DNA of 64,000 nucleotides from Escherichia coli. GTDB taxonomy: Bacteria > Pseudomonadota > Gammaproteobacteria > Enterobacterales > Enterobacteriaceae. Every line of letters begins with the position of its first letter. Position 1 is the stretch's first letter. Shown here in pieces: positions 5,975-22,151 of the stretch. Location: NCBI GenBank assembly GCA_025336725.1, contig GCA_025336725.1_3647.1. One strand, written 5' to 3'. A program made the translations under genes and the position numbers. The notes beneath the pieces were generated by a model, which worked only from the letters and a program-made list of their open reading frames with translations, made no database searches and was not told the origin of the DNA.

Positions 5975-6316
5975 CTACTCAAGGTCTTCAGAGTCAAGCT
6001 CAAAAAGAATCAAACTGTGCATGCCTGCAGAGAGATCAACACACCCTGCAACAATAAGGGTTTGATAGTAAGGTTCAGCACCCTCAATATCTTCGTTAAA
6101 ATCCACAACAAGGTAGTCACCTTTGTTAAAGGTGTATTTGTCCGATGTAAACGCAAAACCTGCCCAGTCCCCTACTGCAGGATCTTTATCAGTCACCTTT
6201 GTTAGTAGTAGATCTTTTTCACGAGATCTTTTAGTAAAATCGTGAATCACAACATCCTTCTCTTCAGGAGTCGGATTGCCACACACGTAGTTAACGATAT
6301 TTCTCCACAAACTCAT
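5975..6316 (-). CDS. hypothetical protein
   Basis: 113 aa ORF, 4-nt overlap with downstream helicase gene. Confidence 0.5.
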   Translation of the reverse strand: MSLWRNIVNYVCGNPTPEEKDVVIHDFTKRSREKDLLLTKVTDKDPAVGDWAGFAFTSDKYTFNKGDYLVVDFNEDIEGAEPYYQTLIVAGCVDLSAGMHSLILFELDSEDLE

Positions 6317-7683
6317 ACGTCCCCCTTTTCTGCTCTAGTTTCAAAATCTTTCCTGACTTTCTCGTCTAAGCCAGGGAAAGTTGTATTATAAAACTCTACG
6401 ACTCTCGGGTCAACAATAATATCCACCTCTCTTAATGGACGCAATAAGTTTATTCCTTGTATCGTCTTAACCCGACTCAAGGCAACATACGTCATTCCGG
6501 GAGAGAAAGCTCCGTTCTTTCCGAGGTCTAGGTTGTAACAATCTAACGTAAGTCCTTGACTTTTATGCGATGTTACTGCGTACCCAGATTTCAAAGGAAG
6601 TTGCTCATAAGACCCGATCACAACCCTCTCTATGAACTTCTCCATCTTCCTTTCGGCAATATTGTACCTCTGGGAAGGTTTGTACTCGTTATTCTCCCAC
6701 AATCTCGGCTCAATTTCAACCTGTGTTCCGTCTTCTAGCTCAACTACTACGGATTTGGTCTTGAATTTTACCACTGTGGCACGTGTCCCGTTAACATAAT
6801 ACGGAACTTTGTGAGTAGGGTCAACATCGTTTGAGGTTATCATAACCTTCATCCCTATCTTCAGCCTCATTTCCTGCTCCACAGGTAGTGTGGAAGGGAA
6901 CTTACCTTTCATTTTACCAATGTAGGTCTTCTCTGGGGCCTTGATGGCATCATAGAAACGTCTGTTCACCTCCTCTGCTTGCTTATTGGTGGCACAGATG
7001 GTCAAGGCATCTGTTGGGACACCACCATGATAGCAACGAGTGTTAAGCTCTGCTACAACCTCTTTTATGCGACGACCTTCACGAACACAGTTCAACATTG
7101 TGGCGAAGCGAACAGATTCCTGACGGAACTGGTCTACCAAGGCTATGTTGTGAAGATTAAGATCCTCCCAAGATTCTGTATAGCAACACAGATCTGTGTG
7201 GTAGAAGTTGAAGTAGGCTTCTTTCTCCATAGAAGAGACAACTGGAGGTGCTTGGTAGAAATCTCCAAACAATAACACCTGAATGCCTCCGAAAGGTTTG
7301 TCATTTTTCCGAAGAAAGCGGAGTTTTCTATCCATCTCTATGAACTTGTCAGCACGGATCATAGAGATTTCATCGATAATCAGGATGGTAAATGCCTTGC
7401 TTTTCAGAGGCTTTGCTGTTTTTGCCCTTATTGCTGTCCAGTCTGACTCCATGCTCACACCTGCGGCAAGATCGAAAGTTCGGTGCGCTGTTGCTCCATT
7501 AACGTTTAAAGCGGCTACCCCTGTCGGGGCAACCGTTATGCAAGAGTCTCCATACATGGACTGGATCATGTTGATAAGATATGTCTTCCCGGTTCCACCA
7601 GGTCCACTTACGAAGACATTCTCACCGCTCATGATTGCAACAAGGGCAGCATCTGTGCCTACATCGTACTGCCCTTTTTCCAT
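6313..7683 (-). CDS. SF1B DNA helicase (PIF1/RecD/Dda-like)
   Basis: 456 aa; Walker A VSGPGGTGKTYL, Walker B IIDEISM, motif LLFGDFYQAPPV typical of PIF1/Dda-like helicases. Confidence 0.8.
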   Translation of the reverse strand: MEKGQYDVGTDAALVAIMSGENVFVSGPGGTGKTYLINMIQSMYGDSCITVAPTGVAALNVNGATAHRTFDLAAGVSMESDWTAIRAKTAKPLKSKAFTILIIDEISMIRADKFIEMDRKLRFLRKNDKPFGGIQVLLFGDFYQAPPVVSSMEKEAYFNFYHTDLCCYTESWEDLNLHNIALVDQFRQESVRFATMLNCVREGRRIKEVVAELNTRCYHGGVPTDALTICATNKQAEEVNRRFYDAIKAPEKTYIGKMKGKFPSTLPVEQEMRLKIGMKVMITSNDVDPTHKVPYYVNGTRATVVKFKTKSVVVELEDGTQVEIEPRLWENNEYKPSQRYNIAERKMEKFIERVVIGSYEQLPLKSGYAVTSHKSQGLTLDCYNLDLGKNGAFSPGMTYVALSRVKTIQGINLLRPLREVDIIVDPRVVEFYNTTFPGLDEKVRKDFETRAEKGDV

Positions 7684-11391: not shown

Positions 11392-11417
11392 AGAAAATCC
11401 CCGCCGAAGCGGGGGTG
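11392..11417 (-). terminator. rho-independent terminator
   Basis: Minus strand CCCCCGC-TTCG-GCGGGG hairpin followed by TTTTCTATT, just downstream of stop of ORF 11427..11807. Confidence 0.6.
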
Positions 11418-11426
11418 TCTTAGAAA

Positions 11427-11807
11427 TTAATCGTAGTGTGCCAAAATCTCTCCATCGTTGCAAGTTCCTTCTACAAAGTTATGAAGATTCATGCACTCAT
11501 CTTGATAGAAGAATTTACCGCTTTTCAGCCGTAAGCCAAACAACTCCGCATCTCCACGATGGCAAGCCTCTACAAGTTCATAGATTTCATACGGCAACTC
11601 TCCGTCGTCATGGAAGAACCCAGCTTTATCGTTGACATAGATGAAGAAATAATCACTGCTGTCGCAAGCGTCCAATATTTCAAACCAGATTTCATCTACA
11701 TCTTTTTCTCGGATATCGATCACGCAAGTGGAGCTGCATTCGTACTCCTTCTCCGGCTCCTCGGTCAATACTACCAGGTAGTTTCCCCGCTTACCTACTT
11801 TAGCCAT
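11427..11807 (-). CDS. hypothetical acidic protein
   Basis: 126 aa, strongly D/E-rich. Confidence 0.5.
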   Translation of the reverse strand: MAKVGKRGNYLVVLTEEPEKEYECSSTCVIDIREKDVDEIWFEILDACDSSDYFFIYVNDKAGFFHDDGELPYEIYELVEACHRGDAELFGLRLKSGKFFYQDECMNLHNFVEGTCNDGEILAHYD

Positions 11808-11816
11808 ACAACCTCC

Positions 11817-13001
11817 TCAAGCTTTAGCCAAAATGGCGCTAAACTCTTCACCAAACTCTTTTACAATCTTCATCAGGTTTGGGTACGCTTTGATCAGTTG
11901 AGCAACGATCTTGTCACGACCTTTACCGATAAGCAAGGCATTTCCTAAGGCATTAGGTTTCATCATCGCCATAAAGACTGAGAATACAAAGTCTCGGTTC
12001 TCATCCTTGAAATTTTCCCAAAGGAAATCAAGGAAGTTTGCCACACAGCTGACGAGATCTTCGTCGGAGATACTTGCATTTTCCATCATGTTACGAATAG
12101 CGATACAACCTTCAGACCCCAGAATCCACAAGATGTCTGGCTGCTTAGGGCCTACATATTCTTTGCAGCCTCCTGCCATAATCCGACCGATTTCTGGCAA
12201 GTTTCGTTTCTTGGTGTGGTAGGTCCAAATTTCTACCGCTGCAGTGTGACCAATGGCACCTTGTAGAAGAACACGGGCCATAGCGTCAGAAATAATACCG
12301 CTGTCAAAATCGTGCAGGATGTCAGATGCAGCAACCCAAGAGCGCGGTGTAGCAAAAGATGGACAATTAATCTCAGCCATGGCCTCATAATTATCGATGG
12401 CTGATGGGACTCTTTTCAGATATCCAATTACCGAGGAGTGCACCCCATTAAGGAATGCATAGTCCTCAATAAACACCTCTGCACTGCTTGTAACTTCTAC
12501 AATGATAAAGCGGTTAGCTAGAGGAGCTTCGAGTGCCGAAAGAACAGCACCGTCTGTAGCACGGTTACCTGCAGCTACAAAAACAGAGCCTTTAGGAAAT
12601 GCATAGGTGCCGCACTTGTGGTCGAGCATAATTTGCATTGCAACCTTCTGCAGGTAGTTATCTGCATGAGTAAGCTCGTCTAGAAAGATAATTCCGCTCC
12701 AGTCCGGATCTGCAGGCCAAAATTCTGGAATTGCAAACACTGTACGTGTAGTTCCATCTGCCTCCACAGGGATAGGCAGTCCAGATAAGTCAGCAGGATC
12801 TTTATCTGACAACCGCACGTCAACCAGGTTGTCATCTCGCTCACCGAACATATTATCAGCAATCTGCTTCATCACCTGGCTCTTCCCCACGCCCATCGGT
12901 CCTAAAATCAGGACAGATCGGTTATGACGCTGGGCAAATTGAATAATAGCTGGCAACTCGCGGACAGTGATTTGACCACTTTCGAATACGTTTCTCGACA
13001 T
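11817..13001 (-). CDS. MoxR-like AAA+ ATPase (AAA_5 type)
   Basis: 394 aa; Walker A GPMGVGKS, Walker B IIFLDEL, sensor-like VAAGN. Confidence 0.7.
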   Translation of the reverse strand: MSRNVFESGQITVRELPAIIQFAQRHNRSVLILGPMGVGKSQVMKQIADNMFGERDDNLVDVRLSDKDPADLSGLPIPVEADGTTRTVFAIPEFWPADPDWSGIIFLDELTHADNYLQKVAMQIMLDHKCGTYAFPKGSVFVAAGNRATDGAVLSALEAPLANRFIIVEVTSSAEVFIEDYAFLNGVHSSVIGYLKRVPSAIDNYEAMAEINCPSFATPRSWVAASDILHDFDSGIISDAMARVLLQGAIGHTAAVEIWTYHTKKRNLPEIGRIMAGGCKEYVGPKQPDILWILGSEGCIAIRNMMENASISDEDLVSCVANFLDFLWENFKDENRDFVFSVFMAMMKPNALGNALLIGKGRDKIVAQLIKAYPNLMKIVKEFGEEFSAILAKA

Positions 13002-13270
13002 TAGTAAAAGTCCTCTACTTGTGTGTAAGTGTTTTCAAAGTTTTCCAAAACAGACATCACATCGGATCTGTCAATATCATACGCAACTCTCCAGACATAT
13101 GCAACCCTTTCTGCTGTTGCCTCTTCTGGCGCTAGTCGTCTGCTGGCATAAAAGAGTGTTGGAGTACACTTTCTTGCTTGCCCTCTAACTTTCCCATAAT
13201 AATATCTGTGAATATCTTTGTCAAAATTTAATTCTTTTTCTGCACGAAGTTCGTACTGCTGGTATAACAT
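13001..13270 (-). CDS. hypothetical protein
   Basis: 89 aa ORF abutting ATPase gene. Confidence 0.45.
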   Translation of the reverse strand: MLYQQYELRAEKELNFDKDIHRYYYGKVRGQARKCTPTLFYASRRLAPEEATAERVAYVWRVAYDIDRSDVMSVLENFENTYTQVEDFY

Positions 13271-13314
13271 CTCTACTGCTCCTTAAGCAGCATCCTTGCT
13301 GCCATCCATACCCA

Positions 13315-13695
13315 CTAAAATGCAGTCCGAATCCAGACAAGGTTCTTATCTGCCCAATCATAGAGGCAAGTCATTGCACTATTGAATTGCTCACACGGAG
13401 GATAATCTTCTTCCATCTTGCGCATAGCAGAGCCTTGTGGGTAAAGCTCCCGTGCTGCAAACCACGCGTCGTAGTCATCAACGGTATCGAAGTAGTATAC
13501 AACATCCTCCAACTCAGGATCGAACTTTGAACTATCAGGATCCAGCTGTTCAGGGAACTTGGAGCGTAACTTGCCAGCCACAATACTTGCCAACTCGCTA
13601 ACATGCTTGTTGTCCCACTCTACCAGTTTCCCGTCTTCAGTTATGCGTCCTAACCACTGATCATGAAGGTCAACTGTTGTCTTCCACTGGGCCAT
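13315..13695 (-). CDS. hypothetical acidic protein
   Basis: 126 aa ORF. Confidence 0.5.
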   Translation of the reverse strand: MAQWKTTVDLHDQWLGRITEDGKLVEWDNKHVSELASIVAGKLRSKFPEQLDPDSSKFDPELEDVVYYFDTVDDYDAWFAARELYPQGSAMRKMEEDYPPCEQFNSAMTCLYDWADKNLVWIRTAF

Positions 13696-13697
13696 TA

Positions 13698-13955
13698 TCA
13701 GTCTACCTCTTCTTCTCGTTGCAGTTCAAGATACCCATAGGTCTGGATATCTTCAAGGGTGTGGAACTCTCCATCTGCTGCTAAGGCACGGACAACCTGG
13801 CATAGAGTTTTATAAGGTACTTTCTCCAAACCCAGATTCAGCGCAGGAAAAACCTTATCTAAGTCAACAAAATATACAAACTGTAGCTCACCAGTTTCAA
13901 AAGGCGTATCTTCGATAAACATCTTCTCGGCATTAGTCAAGATCTGCACTTTCAT
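13698..13955 (-). CDS. hypothetical acidic protein
   Basis: 85 aa ORF; start overlaps stop of upstream ORF by 1 nt. Confidence 0.5.
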   Translation of the reverse strand: MKVQILTNAEKMFIEDTPFETGELQFVYFVDLDKVFPALNLGLEKVPYKTLCQVVRALAADGEFHTLEDIQTYGYLELQREEEVD

Positions 13956-14311
13956 TATTCTACCCCCTCTTCTTTTTCTTCAGCATTAGTTTCAGTGCTA
14001 CCCCACTCTGGATTTTCCACCTCGATAGTGAACTCACGCACTACACGGTAATTGCCCATGAAGCGCTCCACTTCTTCAAGGCTTATGGAGAGGCCATTGG
14101 CAACCAAATCTGCAGCACCCTTCTCTACCAGGTAGTCCAGATTGGCTTCCAAGGCTTCAGGCTCAAACCCTGTCAATGCAATCATATAACCTTCCCCTTC
14201 ATCAAGGAGGGCAATACAGCCCAACTGATTTTCTTTTAAAAAGCAGTGACCATCACTATTGATTGGTTGCTCATTGCAGTAAATAGCTGCACGATAAGTA
14301 ACTTTAGACAT
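13955..14311 (-). CDS. hypothetical acidic protein
   Basis: 118 aa ORF, acidic C-terminus. Confidence 0.5.
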   Translation of the reverse strand: MSKVTYRAAIYCNEQPINSDGHCFLKENQLGCIALLDEGEGYMIALTGFEPEALEANLDYLVEKGAADLVANGLSISLEEVERFMGNYRVVREFTIEVENPEWGSTETNAEEKEEGVE

Positions 14312-14323
14312 TGGTAGGCCTCC

Positions 14324-14602
14324 TTAGGCAACTGTCATTTTACATTCTTGAAATTTTAGCACAAGACGGTGATTGTGTCTAGTGTCTAAAAAGATTTTTT
14401 CAACCATCAGGCACACGGTGTAACCGTCCATCTTGTTGACAACAAAATCCCCAGGGTGAGGGAGAATGTCCCCAGGATTGGGGAAACATAACCCGCTCAA
14501 GAAGGCATCATCGGTGGTGGACCTGATGGATTTCCACACACTATCTGCCTGGACACTCTCACCAACATAATATACACTACCACATGCCTTCATCATAGTC
14601 AA
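14324..14602 (-). CDS. hypothetical protein
   Basis: 92 aa ORF; 4-nt overlap with upstream gene. Confidence 0.45.
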   Translation of the reverse strand: MTMMKACGSVYYVGESVQADSVWKSIRSTTDDAFLSGLCFPNPGDILPHPGDFVVNKMDGYTVCLMVEKIFLDTRHNHRLVLKFQECKMTVA

Positions 14603-15498
14603 ATCTCCGCGTAAATTAAACTGGAATCAGTATACTTCTTTAGTGGGTAAATATCCTGTCCATAGATGCCGTCATTAAACACCTCATCTACCCAAAGGCT
14701 ACACTTATATCCCATCATCTCTAAAACACCCATCTCTTCTTCGGTAAACTTATCACCGCTCTTGCAAGATGTCAACACCTCATTCTGTACTCTTGCTACC
14801 TCGAAGCGATTATTGGCAATATCGCTATTAGCGATCAAATACTCACCCAAAGGGTGTGCGGCATTAAAGATGCACAGTGGACGGTTGACGTAATAGTCTC
14901 CAGGTGTATAAAAATTATTGAGGTCTTTCACTAGAACATTCTTATCAGTCACTTCATTTATAACATCATGCATATCGCACATCTTTATATGTTTGAGGAT
15001 TCCATCCCCCATCACAAAATAAAAACTTGCTGAAACACTTTCGGCATAGATCTTACTAGATCCGTTGTAGTTGTATTTTACTCGGATGCTAACGGAGGTT
15101 TTTCCTGTCGCGTTAGCCATCATCCAAAGGAACGGAAGTTCAAACTTCTCCTCTGAGGAAACAAAAGGTGAAGTTGCCAGAGATCGGAAACCACCAGAGA
15201 AGTTGAAAGTTACAGAGCCGCTCCGGCGATATGATACCGCATATTCTACTTTTATATCGACATAGCCGTTGGAGTAAGTGTGGCCTCCATTATCCAGATA
15301 TGTCCACTTATCAGATCCGGATACCAGCCTACGCTCAATAACCTTCATTACTATAGGAATTAGCGGGTTGGTACAAACCGATTTTGAAGTAGCTTTATCA
15401 TCCAAAGCCTCGTAAATTGCAGAAAGGATATCACCTGCTGAGAGATTGGTTGTGATATCTTGTTTCCACCGAGTGCTAAAGCTGTTAAGATTTGCCAT
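14599..15498 (-). CDS. hypothetical protein, first gene of leftward early operon
   Basis: Start set to ATG 15498 (AGGAG RBS; MANLNSF..), because ORF-track GTG at 15540 lies upstream of the predicted -10 element. Confidence 0.5.
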   Translation of the reverse strand: MANLNSFSTRWKQDITTNLSAGDILSAIYEALDDKATSKSVCTNPLIPIVMKVIERRLVSGSDKWTYLDNGGHTYSNGYVDIKVEYAVSYRRSGSVTFNFSGGFRSLATSPFVSSEEKFELPFLWMMANATGKTSVSIRVKYNYNGSSKIYAESVSASFYFVMGDGILKHIKMCDMHDVINEVTDKNVLVKDLNNFYTPGDYYVNRPLCIFNAAHPLGEYLIANSDIANNRFEVARVQNEVLTSCKSGDKFTEEEMGVLEMMGYKCSLWVDEVFNDGIYGQDIYPLKKYTDSSLIYAEI

Positions 15499-15538
15499 GA
15501 TTAAGTGCTCCTGTGTTCGTTTTCTTTCGAATGGGTGC

Positions 15539-15567
15539 ACTATATCGTAGATTTATAGTAAAGTCAA
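15539..15567 (-). promoter_or_regulatory. sigma70-like promoter, leftward
   Basis: Minus strand TTGACT (15567-15562), 17-nt spacer, TATAGT (15544-15539). Confidence 0.55.
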
Positions 15568-15580
15568 TACGTTTTTGAGG

Positions 15581-15609
15581 TTGACATCTGTCGAGGCACT
15601 TGATAAGAT
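15581..15609 (+). promoter_or_regulatory. sigma70-like promoter, rightward
   Basis: TTGACA (15581-15586), 17-nt spacer, TAAGAT (15604-15609); back to back with the leftward promoter. Confidence 0.55.
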
Positions 15610-15640
15610 TTCTTCACCTACAAAGCACAAGAGACAACTC

Positions 15641-16630
15641 ATGAATCTTGAAAAATATTATACACCAGAAGAGTTAGAGCGCCTGCTCAAAAAATATAGA
15701 CGTAAACAGAATAATGCACGGAAACGAGATATAGAGTTCAACCTGTCATGGGAAGAATATCTCCTATTTGGTAAAAAACTTTTAGGAGAGGGAGTATGCG
15801 ACTATACCCTTATACCTTTCGACATGCACACAGATGAAAACGGACTGGGAAATCCTTTCTACCCATCTCTAGAGCGGATAGATGATGAAGGTCCTTATGC
15901 GGTTGATAACTGTTGTGTGGTAGGATTGAGATGCAACTCTCTAAAGGACTGTCTGGTAGATAAAAAGACCGCAGTCTTGATTAAAGACAAAACTGATCGA
16001 AAAATTGTCCAGCAGATGATGCTCCACCTGAGCGAAGAGCGTATGGAGAAATTGAAAGGTGATTACACTTTTGAAGATTTCATCTTGCAATATGGAACGG
16101 AAGAGGATAAACTAGCACTCTTTGACGAAGAATGGGAGGAAGATATGTCACCAATGCAGGATTTTAAAAACTTCATGGCTAATCGTGGAGCCAACAAGCA
16201 CATTTCTGACATTGTAAACGAGCCTGCAGTAGAGGAGATTGAAGAGATGACGCAACAGGCTTACGAAGAGGAAAAAGAGCCTCAAGGGGTCGAAGAAGAG
16301 CTTACAGAAGAGGTTCCTGCACTGCCTGACGATGTTGAGATTGCCAAAGCTTACACTTTCTATTGCCAGACGTTCTACGATGCAGGTATGAAAGTTGATC
16401 TGTCATTCAGCCAGTTTAAGAGCACATACATTCGAAAATGTTGTGCTTTAACTGGTGAACGTCTCGGTGCCGGACTTAAACCCCTATTAGTTACCGACTG
16501 GAACAAAGGTTTCACCAAAGGTAACTTCATGGTAGTATCTCCAATCATGGAGAAGGCTATGACAGACCTTATGAAGACCACTCGCATGACAATGACCGAG
16601 TTGGCTGGTATTTTCAAGCACGTTAAATAA
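15641..16630 (+). CDS. hypothetical acidic protein with two degenerate HNH-like halves
   Basis: Start moved to ATG 15641, downstream of promoter; central E/D-rich linker; ..SLERIDDEGPYAVDNCCVVGLRCNSLKD.. and ..CCALTGERLG..LVTDWNKGFTKGNFMVV.. Confidence 0.45.
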   Translation: MNLEKYYTPEELERLLKKYRRKQNNARKRDIEFNLSWEEYLLFGKKLLGEGVCDYTLIPFDMHTDENGLGNPFYPSLERIDDEGPYAVDNCCVVGLRCNSLKDCLVDKKTAVLIKDKTDRKIVQQMMLHLSEERMEKLKGDYTFEDFILQYGTEEDKLALFDEEWEEDMSPMQDFKNFMANRGANKHISDIVNEPAVEEIEEMTQQAYEEEKEPQGVEEELTEEVPALPDDVEIAKAYTFYCQTFYDAGMKVDLSFSQFKSTYIRKCCALTGERLGAGLKPLLVTDWNKGFTKGNFMVVSPIMEKAMTDLMKTTRMTMTELAGIFKHVK

Positions 16631-16642
16631 TGACAGGGGCCA

Positions 16643-18124
16643 ATGGCCCCTTCTGGAGTTTTAATGGATAGCAGAAGTTCAGAAATCATTACCGCACAAA
16701 AAGATGATGCCTTGCGAATGCTGCAGGCCGCTCGCATGTACCTTCTTGAAAAGCTGCCGTTTTATGGCACACTGTTGTCAGGGTTGCAGTTCGTAGAAAA
16801 CCACACATGGTGCTCCACTATGGCAACAGACCATAAACGCATCTACTACAGCCCTGAGTTCATTATGGGGTTGGCAGATGAGCGTAAAACCATTCTTAAA
16901 GCATCTCTGACTGACAAGCAGTTTGAGATGGCTGAGGTTTTCTATTCCCCAAAATCTGTGAAAGAGGTGGCCTTCCTTCTGTCACATGAGGTGGGGCATA
17001 TTATCTGTGATCATCTGGTCCGTGGTAAAAGCTTTGAGCCGGAACTGTTCAATATTGCTTGTGATCACGTTATCAACACAGGTCTTGTGGTTGACTTTAG
17101 CAAGCCTCCTTGTGTTTTCTTCCCGAAGGGGAAAAGCACTGAGTTCGTAAAAGGTAAGCCTTTTGGCTTCTTAGCTAATTGCTACTGCGACATGAAGTTT
17201 CATGGATGGATTGCTGAGAACGTCTATGCAGTTCTTGATAAACAAAGAGATCAGAATAGCGGTAAAAGTAAGAACGGTAAAGGCGAGAACTTCCAAGGAG
17301 ATAAACGACAAACCGATGATCACATGAGCGGGAACGGTGGCACCAGTGATGATCTTGGAAAGGCTATGGGGTATGATCAGCCGCAACCAGTAATCAGTCA
17401 ATCTGATAAAGATCAGGCCATGCAGGACTCTGGTGACATGTTGGAAGCAGCAATGCAAGCTTCAGGAGGTCGTTGCCCTGAGGCGGTGCGCGAGTTTGTC
17501 AAAAACAGAGGCAAGCCTGTAATCAACTATATAGATATTATTAAGCAACGTATGTTGTCTAAACGAAAGGCCGAGCTAACCTACAGAAAACCTGGTCGCC
17601 GATCTGGGTCTTTGACCACCACAATGCGAAAAGTTGGAGCTATAAACAAGAATCAACACATTATTGTTCCTGGTCGTAATCCGGAAAACACCATAGATAT
17701 TGTAGTGGCTTTGGACGTTTCTGGGTCGATCTCGCAAAGAACTTTAAAGAAAATGTTCAATGAGATCACCGGGTTGTGCAATTTGTATAAAGAGTTTAAG
17801 GTTACGATGTTCTGTTGGTCAACCGAGGTTGGAGAGGTTAAAGTATACACTCGCGGTAACATCGATGAGATGATTAACTATGAGGTCCACTCAACATGGG
17901 GCACAACAGCCGCCTGCGTGTTCGAGTATCTGGATGCTAACATACCGAATGCAAAAGATGTCATCGTCCTTACCGACCTCTACTTTGAGCACAACTTTGA
18001 ACAAAAGGCTGTTGACAACAAGTGGAAAAAGTACGATACTTTATGGGTTCTCACCGAAGGGTATAATAAAAATTATATCCCGAGCTTTGGGAAAACTGTG
18101 GAATTAATCGAGTATGCTAAGTAA
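16643..18124 (+). CDS. putative metallopeptidase / von Willebrand factor A domain protein
   Basis: 493 aa; HExxH motif (LLSHEVGHIICDH) in N-terminal half; VWA MIDAS-like DxSGS (IVVALDVSGSIS) in C-terminal half. Confidence 0.6.
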   Translation: MAPSGVLMDSRSSEIITAQKDDALRMLQAARMYLLEKLPFYGTLLSGLQFVENHTWCSTMATDHKRIYYSPEFIMGLADERKTILKASLTDKQFEMAEVFYSPKSVKEVAFLLSHEVGHIICDHLVRGKSFEPELFNIACDHVINTGLVVDFSKPPCVFFPKGKSTEFVKGKPFGFLANCYCDMKFHGWIAENVYAVLDKQRDQNSGKSKNGKGENFQGDKRQTDDHMSGNGGTSDDLGKAMGYDQPQPVISQSDKDQAMQDSGDMLEAAMQASGGRCPEAVREFVKNRGKPVINYIDIIKQRMLSKRKAELTYRKPGRRSGSLTTTMRKVGAINKNQHIIVPGRNPENTIDIVVALDVSGSISQRTLKKMFNEITGLCNLYKEFKVTMFCWSTEVGEVKVYTRGNIDEMINYEVHSTWGTTAACVFEYLDANIPNAKDVIVLTDLYFEHNFEQKAVDNKWKKYDTLWVLTEGYNKNYIPSFGKTVELIEYAK

Positions 18125-18130
18125 GAGAGG

Positions 18131-18397
18131 ATGGTATTTATGGCAACAGAGGTAGTAATTAAAGCTGAACGCCCAGTTAAAAAAGCTATCAACACGTTCC
18201 CTGTAGGAACCATTGTGAGCATGATTACAGAGTCAGGCCGTGTATCTACACTGCTAATCGTGAAATCTGCATGCTCATCTTGTGTGTGGGCATACGATCT
18301 TGACGAGAAAGAACTGAAAGATTTTGTCGGGGAGCTGAAAGCAACAGAGCTTGACGCTCGTATCGAAGTATTTGGTGAAACTATGGAGGAAGAGTAA
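18131..18397 (+). CDS. small hypothetical protein, paralogue 1 of 3
   Basis: 88 aa; shares F-x-x-G-[ET]-[IV]-[VL] and downstream Cys pattern with the next two ORFs. Confidence 0.45.
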   Translation: MVFMATEVVIKAERPVKKAINTFPVGTIVSMITESGRVSTLLIVKSACSSCVWAYDLDEKELKDFVGELKATELDARIEVFGETMEEE

Positions 18398-18660
18398 TGA
18401 CTACAAAAATCACCATTGCAGAACCAAAAGCTAACACGCAACCTATCGAAAAGTTTAAATGCGGTGAGGTGGTAACATTCACACCAGATAATGAAGATGC
18501 CAAGATTTTTGCCATGGTCACAGCCGAGTGGATGTGTGACAATACCACACAGGTGCTGCGTTTTGACACCTATCTTACAGATGAAATCAGGAACGACAAG
18601 ATCGTGACTGGTGTGGATACTGAGATTATTTTCTACAAGAGCTTTTTAGAGGGTTTCTGA
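18397..18660 (+). CDS. small hypothetical protein, paralogue 2 of 3
   Basis: 87 aa; start overlaps upstream stop. Confidence 0.45.
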   Translation: MTTKITIAEPKANTQPIEKFKCGEVVTFTPDNEDAKIFAMVTAEWMCDNTTQVLRFDTYLTDEIRNDKIVTGVDTEIIFYKSFLEGF

Positions 18661-18661
18661 T

Positions 18662-18895
18662 ATGGCAAAAATTCGTAAATTATCCAGCAATCAGGTTGTG
18701 AAAGACTTTGAATCTGGGGAGATCTTGTATGTCCGTGATGCAGATGATGAATGTGAAGATCTTGTTATGCTGGTAGGGCACGCTGAAGACGGATGCATCC
18801 AGGCTGTTTTTCTTGAAACAGCGATGGTGCACTGGATAGAGCTGGACCTGAAAGCACGAAAACCTAAAGCAGAAATCATTATTTACGAAGATTAA
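18662..18895 (+). CDS. small hypothetical protein, paralogue 3 of 3
   Basis: 77 aa; FESGEILYV... pattern. Confidence 0.45.
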   Translation: MAKIRKLSSNQVVKDFESGEILYVRDADDECEDLVMLVGHAEDGCIQAVFLETAMVHWIELDLKARKPKAEIIIYED

Positions 18896-18911
18896 CAAGA
18901 AGGAGAGAGCC

Positions 18912-19361
18912 GTGTTGAGCAAACGTGAATGCGACAGCATTAGCCTGAATTCTTATAAGAAACAATGGTTTGGTGTAGAAGTTTGCCGACTACGGCTGGG
19001 CTCCTACTTGAACTTCGTCCATTATGAGAGCGACAGTCGTATCGTTTCTTATGAAGTGTTCTACACTAAGAATACATTCGAGCTGAGACGTAAGGTGGAT
19101 GGCGGGAGATCTACCGCCCAGAATAATTGGGAAACTATTCTGCCTCCAGATGTTATAGGAAGTCCCCTGAATGTATCTGAAGATGAAAATCTTATGGTTC
19201 ATGCTATGATGGGACTTGACAGCTTAGAGCTGGCGATCTATGATATGTCCATCGAAGCAGTTAAGTTGGACTACATCGAAAACACTTTAGAGGAAGGTAT
19301 CAAGAAGTTTCTCGGTGAGAAATTGAAAGCCCACTTTCATAAGGAGCTATATCTGTTATGA
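18912..19361 (+). CDS. hypothetical protein
   Basis: 149 aa ORF. Confidence 0.45.
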   Translation: MLSKRECDSISLNSYKKQWFGVEVCRLRLGSYLNFVHYESDSRIVSYEVFYTKNTFELRRKVDGGRSTAQNNWETILPPDVIGSPLNVSEDENLMVHAMMGLDSLELAIYDMSIEAVKLDYIENTLEEGIKKFLGEKLKAHFHKELYLL

Positions 19362-19603
19362 AGACCCGTAAAGAACGTAACAAGATTTTACCTGGCGCTC
19401 TCGAACACATGATGAAGTGCAGATCTATCTGGCACTCTGCCAAGGAGGGCCAGCATGTGGTCGTGGTTAGTGATAATGTCAACCCGTTCGGTGATTATGT
19501 CACCATGATGACTCCATACATCCGCGACGGTGTTGTGGAAGTGGTTCCTTATAACGGTCTGCATGAGAGGCATTTTGAGAGCACTTTGCTAGTGGAGCTA
19601 TAA
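19358..19603 (+). CDS. hypothetical protein
   Basis: 81 aa ORF, 4-nt overlap with upstream ORF. Confidence 0.45.
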   Translation: MKTRKERNKILPGALEHMMKCRSIWHSAKEGQHVVVVSDNVNPFGDYVTMMTPYIRDGVVEVVPYNGLHERHFESTLLVEL

Positions 19604-19605
19604 TT

Positions 19606-20088
19606 ATGGCGGTCAATGTGGCTTACAACACAGGAAAGCTTGACAGAGACATTGGGTGTCTTGTCCTTTCAGATACAGAGGAGTATTGGGGTTATGGGTT
19701 GCTGTCAGACCCACACCCGAGCAACCTTGTATCAACGGTGCTCTATCGCTACGACCCTGTACCAACGGTGCACGACAAAGATATTCACGACCTTCGGATC
19801 AAGTGTCTGGAAGATCTTCTGAACAATGGCTGCAACGATCTGCGGGTAGCCAAGGAGAAGCTTACAAACATTCACAAAGAGGAAGTGATGAGCACCCTCA
19901 GTAAGAGGTCAGTGCACAAAAAGATGATGTTAAACTTTGCGATGGGTATCTACATGGATGGGTATAAGGGAGGGGATCCGATCCTCAAGCTTCGCTGCCC
20001 AACACTGTGGGAAAGAGTGGTTGACAGTAAAGACAGTACTGCCCTGCTAGAGAACTCCACACTGCAGGTTGGATTTGGCGGTATGTAG
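19606..20088 (+). CDS. hypothetical protein
   Basis: 160 aa ORF. Confidence 0.45.
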   Translation: MAVNVAYNTGKLDRDIGCLVLSDTEEYWGYGLLSDPHPSNLVSTVLYRYDPVPTVHDKDIHDLRIKCLEDLLNNGCNDLRVAKEKLTNIHKEEVMSTLSKRSVHKKMMLNFAMGIYMDGYKGGDPILKLRCPTLWERVVDSKDSTALLENSTLQVGFGGM

Positions 20089-20230
20089 ACGGATACCCTC
20101 TGTGGGCATGTGGGCCTGGGGAATTTGTTGACAGACCTAGCGCGGTAGTGGATTTGCTATTGCAGTTTGAATAAAAGGTGAGTTATAAAGCATTCATACA
20201 CCTATCAACAATACAACAAGAGAGACTGAG

Positions 20231-20506
20231 ATGACGAAAGAAGAAGCTGACGTATTAGACTTTGCGCTGGAGGCTACGCAAGAGGCCCTGGTGTTAGCTT
20301 GGAAAATGAATCAGCGTGCTGCAGAATGCAACCGCCGAATCAATGAGATCCTGGGTATGTCTATGTATGATTTCACCATGCATGCCGGAGAGATCCCTGA
20401 ATTAACTGCTGAGATGAATGATCTTGACGATAAAATTAATATCATTCTGAAGACAGCAGAAACAACTCATCAAACCGCCCGTAAATTTATCAACGAGAAG
20501 GTGTGA
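20231..20506 (+). CDS. hypothetical protein
   Basis: 91 aa ORF after 140-nt intergenic region. Confidence 0.45.
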   Translation: MTKEEADVLDFALEATQEALVLAWKMNQRAAECNRRINEILGMSMYDFTMHAGEIPELTAEMNDLDDKINIILKTAETTHQTARKFINEKV

Positions 20507-20982
20507 ATATGGACTACAGCTACTGCGGGGAAGAAGTCCCTTTTAACTACAGCAATCTCACCACGAGCAATCCATATGAGACTCGCCACGGCACACACAT
20601 CATTGCCATTGACTTTGATGGAACATTTAATGCGAGTCCTTTCATCTTCTCCCGCCTGATTAAGGACTTGAAAAAGGAAGGGTGGACAGTATACCTTGTG
20701 ACTTCTCGGTTCATCACTCAAGACAACGTGGACATTGAGTATTGGCGTAAGGAGTTGGATGTAGGTGTGTTCTACACAGGCGGTGTACAAAAGGCAGCCT
20801 ACTTGGCACAGTTCGATATCTACCCTGACATCTGGGTGGATGATTCTCCGGCTTGCATTCCTGCTAAAAATCAGTTAGAGTTCGCAATGAAGGAGATTAA
20901 GTATAAGTCTGACGCAAAGCGTAATGGATGGCCTTTTATTATTGAAGATTACCCAGATCCTGAACCGGAGAAAGAGCCATGA
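20503..20982 (+). CDS. HAD-superfamily phosphatase-like protein (nucleotidase-like)
   Basis: 159 aa; HAD motif I IIAIDFDGT followed by ..VYLVTSR.. (motif II-like). Confidence 0.4.
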   Translation: MNMDYSYCGEEVPFNYSNLTTSNPYETRHGTHIIAIDFDGTFNASPFIFSRLIKDLKKEGWTVYLVTSRFITQDNVDIEYWRKELDVGVFYTGGVQKAAYLAQFDIYPDIWVDDSPACIPAKNQLEFAMKEIKYKSDAKRNGWPFIIEDYPDPEPEKEP

Positions 20983-21148
20983 AACGAAGGTATCATTACT
21001 TAATGTGGAAGTTATATCATGGTGCTGCTAAAGCCTATCTCACCACGCTTGGTAATGACAATCACTACATCATGTTACACCTCGCCGCCATTAAGCATCA
21101 CAACGAGTGGATTCATGCAATCGTGGCAGGTGATAAAGACTTTAAGTA
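20978..21148 (+). CDS. small hypothetical protein (56 aa), translationally coupled
   Basis: ATG overlaps upstream TGA stop (ATGA); below ORF-track size cutoff. Confidence 0.35.
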
Positions 21149-21199
21149 AAATATACCTCAAAAACGTATAGTGCAGCTTTCTAGACGGAGACTGATTAA

Positions 21200-21580
21200 A
21201 TGTGCAAGTGTAAATCCTATAATTGGAAAATTAAAGGTGCCAAGCGCCCAAATGTTATCGTCGATGTGCCTAAAAATCTTCGTGACGGCAAAAAACGTGT
21301 GTGCCTTGATAAGTGTATGGCTAAGCCTATCATGAGCTTGTGGGCAGCAGGTTTGAAAACGCTAAACTGCTGCTGTGGTCATAACAAAGATGTTCCAAGC
21401 ATCATTATCCCAGAAGATGCAGATCCTAAAGCTTATGCCAAAATACTGACCCGCTATCCCAGCACCTTCCTGATCGGAAAATGGTGTCACGATGAACTTC
21501 AATGGTGGATAGCCTATGGTAGTATAGGCACCACTTTTGGCTTCCCAGCTTTGTCAGAGCGGTATGTCAAGGTGTCATAA
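21200..21580 (+). CDS. hypothetical Cys-rich protein
   Basis: 126 aa ORF with GGAG RBS; multiple Cys clusters. Confidence 0.45.
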   Translation: MCKCKSYNWKIKGAKRPNVIVDVPKNLRDGKKRVCLDKCMAKPIMSLWAAGLKTLNCCCGHNKDVPSIIIPEDADPKAYAKILTRYPSTFLIGKWCHDELQWWIAYGSIGTTFGFPALSERYVKVS

Positions 21581-21589
21581 TAGAATTTA

Positions 21590-21607
21590 AGGCCTCAAAC
21601 GAGGCCT
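21590..21607 (+). other. stem-loop immediately after stop codon
   Basis: AGGCCTC-AAAC-GAGGCCT perfect 7-bp stem; no T-run, so terminator function uncertain. Confidence 0.3.
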
Positions 21608-21684
21608 GTGCCTTCATAAATTGCCCCACCCTGTGCGATTGCCTTTCTGAATAAAATACCCTCTCAGATCTCTTAAAATTAAGC

Positions 21685-21713
21685 TTGACACCGACACCTG
21701 ATTTGTATATGAT
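21685..21713 (+). promoter_or_regulatory. sigma70-like promoter
   Basis: TTGACA (21685-21690), 17-nt spacer, TATGAT (21708-21713), about 30 nt upstream of ORF 21744. Confidence 0.55.
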
Positions 21714-21743
21714 TCTCTCACCAACCAAACAGAGGGGACTGTC

Positions 21744-22151
21744 ATGGATAATCTTACAAGTGTGAACGTCGAAATTGTTAAACTAAAATTTTTGGGATTT
21801 CGAGACCCTGATTCTTTAACAGCTATACTAATGGATACCCACTTCACGCCAGGGGAAGAGTACACTGCCTTCCGTTATATTCACGGAGATCACGAATCGG
21901 CCTATAGTGTGAATACAAACCTCGGCGAGGGATATTTCATCAAAGATATCACAGATCACTTGTGGGGTATGTGGGAATTGGTGGAAGAAGAGAATAAATC
22001 CCTTCCCAAAGAGATTTGGGTGCACACCTTCCACACAGGTAAGTTCGGAGGTACGGAACATAAGTCTATCCACTATGAAGAAGAAAGTGCCATCAAACAA
22101 CAAGCTGTGCTTGGTGGATCTGTAGAAAAATTTGTTAAATGCGGGGACTGA
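21744..22151 (+). CDS. hypothetical protein
   Basis: 135 aa ORF downstream of strong promoter-like element. Confidence 0.5.
   Translation: MDNLTSVNVEIVKLKFLGFRDPDSLTAILMDTHFTPGEEYTAFRYIHGDHESAYSVNTNLGEGYFIKDITDHLWGMWELVEEENKSLPKEIWVHTFHTGKFGGTEHKSIHYEEESAIKQQAVLGGSVEKFVKCGD

Follow-up and report, generated by a model that had tools for sequence, protein, structure and literature searches.

A MoxR-type AAA+ ATPase and a metallopeptidase-VWA protein on opposite strands of a Vequintavirus genome: a conserved phage gene pair with a possible counter-defence role

Described ATPase-VWA pairs and the locus

The AAA ATPase gp24 and the vWFA protein gp25 of phage N4 are products of the 14-gene core shared by N4-like phages (Schitoviridae), with their function listed as unknown (PMC4193335, PMC2784036). 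Here, a homologous pair was analysed in a 64,000-nucleotide stretch of DNA (the window) taken from Escherichia coli assembly GCA_025336725.1, contig GCA_025336725.1_3647.1. The window is Vequintavirus DNA, from an rV5/FV3-like E. coli myophage, and the 6.8-kb stretch around the two genes is 94-98% identical to 122 phage records. The ATPase gene lies on the minus strand at 11817..13001 (open reading frame (ORF) of 394 aa), and the partner gene, encoding a metallopeptidase-VWA protein, lies on the plus strand in an ORF open over 16643..18124 (493 aa). With a probability of roughly 0.55, the two products are subunits of one ATP-driven remodelling and proteolysis machine, which would be an accessory, counter-defence device with the bacterial defence system DS-28 among its targets.

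The window ATPase matched "N4 gp24-like protein" at 27% identity (E 2e-17), and the partner matched "N4 gp25-like protein" at 23-24% identity (E 6e-18). Both window proteins are longer than their N4-like counterparts (394 versus ~356 aa for the ATPase, 486 versus ~408 aa for the partner), and whereas the N4-like genes are adjacent, co-oriented and sited among middle and replication genes, those of the window lie 3.6 kb from each other on opposite strands and enclose eight other genes. The same architecture, a MoxR ATPase with a vWA protein carrying an N-terminal metallopeptidase domain, has been reported from jumbo phages of group 2.2 (PMC7824862; Iyer et al. 2021, Viruses 13:63), where a role in virion assembly and processing was proposed; the jumbo phages PBECO4 and Atu_ph07 were matched by both window proteins. 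Another virus-encoded MoxR/VWA system, cited in the same work and likened here by description, is p618 (MoxR) with its VWA partner in Acidianus two-tailed virus, which differs in being archaeal, in having a partner without a peptidase domain, and in acting in extracellular tail development. The closest described genes are those of phage Bas54: bas54_0063 is the direct orthologue of the window ATPase (99.2% aa identity, same surrounding gene order, no material difference at the sequence level), and bas54_0055 is 98.4% identical to the partner.

Outside phages, NorQ/NorD (iron insertion into nitric oxide reductase) and CbbQ/CbbO (Rubisco activation) are likewise two-subunit systems of an ATPase and a VWA protein with an adhesion site that depends on a metal ion (MIDAS). 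In NorQ/NorD, a VWA "finger" reaches into the pore of the ring, and the client is held at the MIDAS (PMC9976466, PMC13036017). The NorD VWA domain was among the structural matches of the window partner, and the 2026 NorQ-NorD structures were among the best matches for both window proteins. Sequence identity to NorQ/NorD and CbbQ/CbbO is 16-20%; the N-terminal domain of the partner is a zincin peptidase and not of the NorD/CbbO type, the window ATPase has an extra C-terminal helical domain unlike NorQ/CbbQ, and no client enzyme gene is adjacent.

The gene pair itself is already known: the same genes with the same annotation occur in more than 100 GenBank records, and nothing in the window itself is new. 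Sister-phage records label the products "MoxR ATPase" and "putative metallopeptidase" or "VWA-like domain-containing protein". The DUF2201 peptidase-VWA family, to which the partner belongs, is widely mislabelled in public records; the labels "HNH endonuclease" (PHROG 1314 and many RefSeq entries), "anti-sigma factor" and "DNA repair ATPase" were considered for the partner and rejected for lack of domain support, with no HNH domain found in it by Pfam.

The two proteins and their pairing across phages

The product of 11817..13001 is supported as a MoxR-type AAA+ ATPase of the N4 gp24 family. Among 65 homologues, the Walker A motif GPMGVGKS (aa 34-41; 12879..12902, minus strand) is invariant at G37, G39, K40 and S41, both residues of the Walker B acidic pair D108-E109 (12675..12680, minus strand) are invariant, and so are N146 (sensor 1), R164 (arginine finger, in PLANRF) and R220 (sensor 2, in ATPRSW). 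The protein matched PHROG 1297 (E 2e-110). A very large set of ~360-aa proteins, which carry AAA_3 (the MoxR model), AAA_5 and sometimes bpMoxR in precomputed annotation, aligned with 70-92% of it at 31-35% identity (E ~1e-45). Searched directly, the window ATPase scored 15.5-16.9 bits against the MoxR-type Pfam models (AAA_3 PF07726, AAA_5 PF07728, bpMoxR PF20030), for which the cut-offs are 22-27 bits. In the AlphaFold (AF2) model (pLDDT 85.9), the AAA+ core covers ~aa 1-270, and the extra helical domain covers aa 288-393. By predicted secondary structure, helix 2 and strand 3 are separated by a helix-2-insert hairpin (aa 75-90), and the sensor-1 strand is preceded by a short pre-sensor-1 hairpin (aa 129-135); as modelled, this is the architecture of the MoxR/dynein clade (clade 7). 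The 15 best PDB matches of the model were NorQ (ranks 1-6 and 8-15) and the Rubisco activase AfCbbQ2 (E 3e-8 to 1e-6, TM 0.6-0.67 on target), with McrB, ClpC and MCM ranking below these. NCBIfam and PADLOC searches gave no meaningful match for either window protein.

For the partner, residue numbers refer to the 493-aa ORF, and conservation was assessed over 60 homologues, down to 20% identity. Translation probably starts at 16664, 21 nt inside the ORF, which gives 486 aa, since a GGAG precedes that ATG by 5 nt, a 7-bp GC hairpin encloses the ATG at 16643, and every GenBank orthologue as well as the main protein cluster is 486 aa long. Sequence comparison supports the product of 16664..18124 as a metallopeptidase-VWA protein of the N4 gp25/DUF2201 family, with a predicted peptidase role: it scored 98.8 bits against DUF2201_N (PF13203, "putative metallopeptidase"; gathering cut-off 23.2) and 44 bits against DUF2201 (PF09967, "VWA-like"; gathering cut-off 26.4). 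The zincin motif HEVGHIICDH (16985..17014, plus strand) contributes H115, E116, H119 and H124 to an HExxHxxxxH...D site that is completed by D141; all five residues, and also A139, are invariant. The VWA-like domain (17666..18121, plus strand) holds a complete MIDAS, made up of D358-x-S360-x-S362 (DVSGS, 17714..17728), T421 and D445, which together with G420 are invariant.

The model of the partner (pLDDT 84.2) shows a helical N-terminal domain, a C-terminal alpha/beta domain, and a disordered insert rich in G, S, D and K at aa 205-250. This insert resembles the NorD linker that NorQ remodels, and might be the part on which the ATPase pulls. A comparable disordered insert, rich in G, D, K and S, was seen at aa ~140-200 of a DUF2201 homologue (P0164) from the bacterium Sulfurivermis fontis, and in both the phage and the bacterial DUF2201 proteins it sets the HExxH lobe apart from the remainder of the chain. 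By profile, the peptidase domain is weakly similar to M48-type minimal gluzincins (E 0.025-0.06). A PDB search with the partner sequence alone returned nothing, a profile search returned only VWA domains and very weak M48-like matches, and two fold searches with the model were dominated by VWA domains, with no close solved relative of the peptidase domain. A literature search on DUF2201 found four papers, with no functional study among them, and no biochemically characterised member, and one on COG3864 likewise returned nothing useful. Strong purifying selection acts on both genes (dN/dS 0.009 for the ATPase, 0.04-0.06 for the partner).

Pairing was assessed in 80 IMG/VR loci anchored on the ATPase. 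In 67 of them the ATPase gene is followed immediately, on its own strand, by a DUF2201 gene; in 9 others the contig ends within 200 nt, 2 have room downstream and no DUF2201 match, and the remaining 2, the Vequintavirus copy and a Mydovirus-like contig, are split. ATPase and VWA genes are adjacent in uncultured phage contigs L002-L004, in Atu_ph07, in Sulfurivermis fontis (locus L005) and in others, and adjacency is also kept in lineage L008; in the N4-like Pseudomonas phage Ab09, a single small ORF separates the N4 gp24-like gene from the N4 gp25-like gene. Among 122 Vequintavirus records, the ATPase is retained in 118 and the partner in 119, and counts by genus over cultured-phage records run parallel (813 for the ATPase, 661 for the partner). 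In other phages the pair sits among genes for replication and nucleotide metabolism. A scan of genome contigs gave four loci, all on contigs of metagenome-assembled genomes and probably phage, which have little bearing on bacterial distribution. Taken over all these genomes, comparative genomics strongly supports the two genes as one module.

Rather than being ancestral, the split seen in the window is a derived rearrangement that Vequintavirus and Mydovirus, as far as examined, have in common, because adjacency is kept in Certrevirus phiTE, also a member of the Vequintavirinae (ATPase-[HNH]-VWA on one strand), whereas Mydovirus Ro1 has the divergent split of the window. The operon order of the N4 gp24/gp25 type, with the ATPase upstream and co-oriented, is thus absent from the window, and the proteins are homologous.

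These results bear on an earlier note on this DNA, made from its sequence, which had named the ATPase at 11817..13001 as MoxR-type and had stated that such ATPases normally work with a VWA partner. The first claim is borne out by the invariant motifs, the relatives carrying AAA_3, AAA_5 and bpMoxR, and the NorQ/CbbQ structures; the second agrees with the adjacent, co-oriented genes of almost every other phage and of a bacterium, and the co-occurrence analysis that the note had suggested yielded the 67 of 80 loci. Its HExxH and VWA protein at 16643..18124 holds as to the ORF and both motifs (HEVGH, aa 115-119; DVSGS, aa 358-362), and the start has probably to be moved to 16664. In the Pfam check that it had proposed, the partner passed both DUF2201 models, and the ATPase itself scored below the cut-offs while its relatives carry the MoxR-type domains. 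Overall, domain searches sustained the MoxR and VWA identities.

Bas54 transposon data and the role of the pair

Evidence on function comes from the HIDEN-SEQ preprint (bioRxiv 10.1101/2025.11.20.689424), in which mutagenised Bas54 (Escherichia phage MaxBurger) was studied by transposon sequencing; what follows refers to those main-text passages and supplementary tables of the preprint that concern these genes and DS-28. Neither bas54_0063 nor bas54_0055 is essential on K-12, where insertions hit 94% of their TA sites. A clean knockout of bas54_0063 makes the phage sensitive to cloned DS-28, a two-gene defence system from the uropathogenic strain CFE311, and deletion of bas54_0140, an unrelated small gene, likewise does so. 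DS-28 is exclusively plasmid-borne in one dataset, and a literature search found no further description of it beyond these points. In resampling on CFE311, mean reads in bas54_0063 fell from 148.7 to 0 (log2 fold change (log2FC) -7.23, q = 0), and those in bas54_0055 fell from 219.7 to 47.2 (log2FC -2.20, q = 0.009), with the flanking genes bas54_0053, 0054, 0056, 0057, 0062 and 0064 unaffected. The depletion of bas54_0055 is left without comment in those passages, and a role for the partner is our own reading of the supplementary table. The earlier note had held that the role of the pair in infection was not obvious; that is so from the sequence, and the preprint goes beyond it in showing that the orthologous ATPase counters DS-28. 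A CRISPRi-ART paper and a second transposon paper were also consulted, and neither mentions these genes.

Supplementary file 9 of the preprint gives, in sheets Data S6 and S7, a "K-12 vs CFE303" comparison that is the same TRANSIT run (*_311.wig), with the same numbers, as that for CFE311. The CFE303 table thus appears to be missing from the supplement, so that the CFE311 values stand without a second-host control. The same resampling shows strong depletion on CFE311 of bas54_0068 (log2FC -6.32, q = 0), which is absent from the main-text passages on DS-28. Its orthologue in the window is a 456-aa protein at 6313-7683 (minus strand), downstream of rIIA/rIIB and labelled "AAA family ATPase" or "DNA helicase".

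The K-12 data bear directly on the proposal that the pair is a virion-assembly chaperone with a processing protease, which would fold or assemble structural proteins and trim them. [quoted passage not shown] The structural genes of Bas54 score as essential, however, whereas both orthologues tolerate insertions, and Bas54 has a separate prohead protease. The two genes also lie outside the structural module, near genes of host-takeover type (an Srd-like protein, rIIA/B), their relatives elsewhere keep company with replication and nucleotide-metabolism genes, and their N4 homologues belong to the middle genes (PMC4193335). For the pair in Vequintavirus, an essential role as assembly chaperone is unlikely, and we hold an assembly function of this kind in general to be improbable.

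We give as little credence to a chaperone for cofactor insertion or activation in the style of NorQ/NorD, CbbQ/CbbO or CobS/CobT, serving a phage or host metalloenzyme such as ribonucleotide reductase. NorQ/NorD and CbbQ are the closest solved structures, and the genes for thymidylate synthase and other functions of nucleotide metabolism are neighbours of the pair in many phages. Yet no conserved client gene is adjacent in any lineage examined, and the invariant zincin site of the partner is foreign to chaperones of the NorQD/CbbQO type. The pair is dispensable on K-12, while class I ribonucleotide reductase is essential, and the phenotype is specific to host defence.

A further alternative is that the Vequintavirus genes work apart since the split, with the ATPase alone, perhaps together with bas54_0140, acting against DS-28 and the partner retaining a minor, separate role. 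The effect sizes differ (log2FC -7.2 versus -2.2), the two DS-28 factors validated in the preprint are bas54_0063 and bas54_0140, and the two genes now belong to different transcription units. Against this, both genes are intact, under purifying selection and kept in ~118-119 of 122 Vequintavirus records as well as in Mydovirus, where the pair is split in the same way, the partner has its catalytic and MIDAS residues unimpaired, and the partner is the only significantly depleted gene of its neighbourhood on CFE311. Characterised MoxR ATPases, moreover, need a VWA partner (PMC9976466). Separate action is considered unlikely.

The preferred reading remains that of a two-subunit machine. The ATPase would form a MoxR-type AAA+ ring, on which the partner, by analogy with the characterised pairs, would dock through its VWA domain; the MIDAS metal site would grip an acidic residue of a target protein, and the zinc-peptidase domain would then cut the target, or the partner itself. 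Such a machine would be accessory and no part of the core replication or assembly apparatus, neutralising host factors in the infected cell, of which DS-28 would be at least one. Physical contact between ATPase and VWA protein, cleavage of a host protein, a joint effect on DS-28 and the timing of expression are all inferred.

Several points weigh against this reading. Loss of the partner on CFE311 is only ~4.6-fold, compared with complete loss of ATPase insertions, and the second DS-28 factor of the preprint is bas54_0140 and not the peptidase-VWA gene, so that the ATPase may act largely without its partner. The deletions tried against cloned DS-28 in the preprint are those of bas54_0063 and bas54_0140, and CFE311 carries other defences; the evidence on DS-28 is itself from a preprint. 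The module is core to all N4-like phages and spread over many host genera; its hosts are unlikely all to carry DS-28, and counter-defence against DS-28 alone therefore cannot be its whole role, with DS-28 at most one target. All AAA models of Pfam fall below gathering score on the window ATPase (AAA_14, AAA_5 and bpMoxR at 15-21 bits), and interaction, ATPase activity and proteolysis are predicted activities throughout the family.

A broader and rather doubtful version would make the N4 gp24/gp25-type pair, which over 600 genomes of cultured phages contain, a general ATP-powered counter-defence protease, with DS-28 only the first target identified. The VWA/MIDAS subunit would recognise host immune proteins, the AAA+ ring would remodel them, and the zincin would destroy them; if true, this would be the first AAA+/VWA anti-defence machine.

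Gene arrangement, promoter-like sites and implications

The two genes belong to units that diverge from an intergenic region of 142 bp (15499..15640). In the leftward unit the ATPase comes seventh, ~2.5 kb in from this region, and is followed by one more ORF and by a strong terminator-like hairpin (CCCCGCTTCGGCGGGG, then a T-run; 11399..11414, minus strand) that closes the unit. The partner is the second gene of the rightward unit, after an Srd-like "anti-sigma" gene (15641..16630, plus strand). Two back-to-back sigma70-like sites were found between the units, the leftward TTGACT-17-TATAGT (15567..15539, minus strand) and the rightward TTGACA-17-TG-TAAGAT (15581..15609, plus strand), each matching the consensus at 10 of 12 positions, where 0.8 such sites would be expected in 300 bp. 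The earlier note had described the genes as flanking divergent promoters on opposite strands: the strands and a back-to-back pair of sites between the genes were found, and the genes, as the seventh and the second of their units, do not flank the sites directly.

These sites fit transcription by host RNA polymerase and co-regulation of both units, judged by their sequence. The Vequintavirus/Mydovirus rearrangement would have moved the ATPase gene across the bidirectional promoter region, splitting the ancestral ATPase-then-VWA operon, and both genes would still be driven from the same intergenic region. The earlier note had called both genes early, a putative timing read from the promoter-like sites; the homologues in N4 are middle genes, and a literature search on rV5-group transcription found no transcript data for this phage group. 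The best sigma70-like site of the region is TTGACA-17-TATTAT (11 of 12; 13196-13224, minus strand), inside an 89-aa ORF, and could be a promoter of the ATPase's own or a chance match. The partner lies within a plus-strand gene island at 15575-22000, in a genome arm that is otherwise minus-strand, and GC skew is positive at 16-22 kb and negative elsewhere; this skew-switching island is consistent with a rearrangement that split the module.

The hairpin that hides the upstream in-frame ATG of the partner is a perfect 7-bp GC stem, AGGGGCC-AAT-GGCCCCT (16635..16651, plus strand; fold z = -2.5), between the Srd-like stop codon and the VWA start. It is without a proper T-run on the plus strand, and could serve for attenuation, for processing or to stabilise the transcript. 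An Rfam search of 11-19 kb found no RNA family.

Two small ORFs border the ATPase, one of 89 aa on its 5' side (13001..13270), translationally coupled to it, and one of 126 aa (11427..11807). Both were considered as parts of the system and rejected, as neither is conserved in the more distant lineages L007 and L008, and in Bas54 the orthologous genes showed no effect on CFE311. The PHROG 13164 label "ATPase" on the 89-aa ORF found no support. Among the records matching 11400-18200 are 16 (MG0656xx) named "Campylobacter phage" (host C. jejuni); those listed cover the whole query at ~94% identity to the E. coli Vequintavirus stretch, and are likely contamination or mislabelling.

Few phage modules without an assigned function are conserved as widely as this pair, which is present in N4-like, rV5-like and many jumbo phages, and its function, once known, would carry over to the annotation of hundreds of genomes. 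Through the Bas54 data, the ATPase is linked to escape from one particular bacterial defence, and the supplementary numbers suggest that the partner takes part. A vague "chaperone?" label could thereby give way to a testable claim, that of an energy-dependent counter-defence protease.

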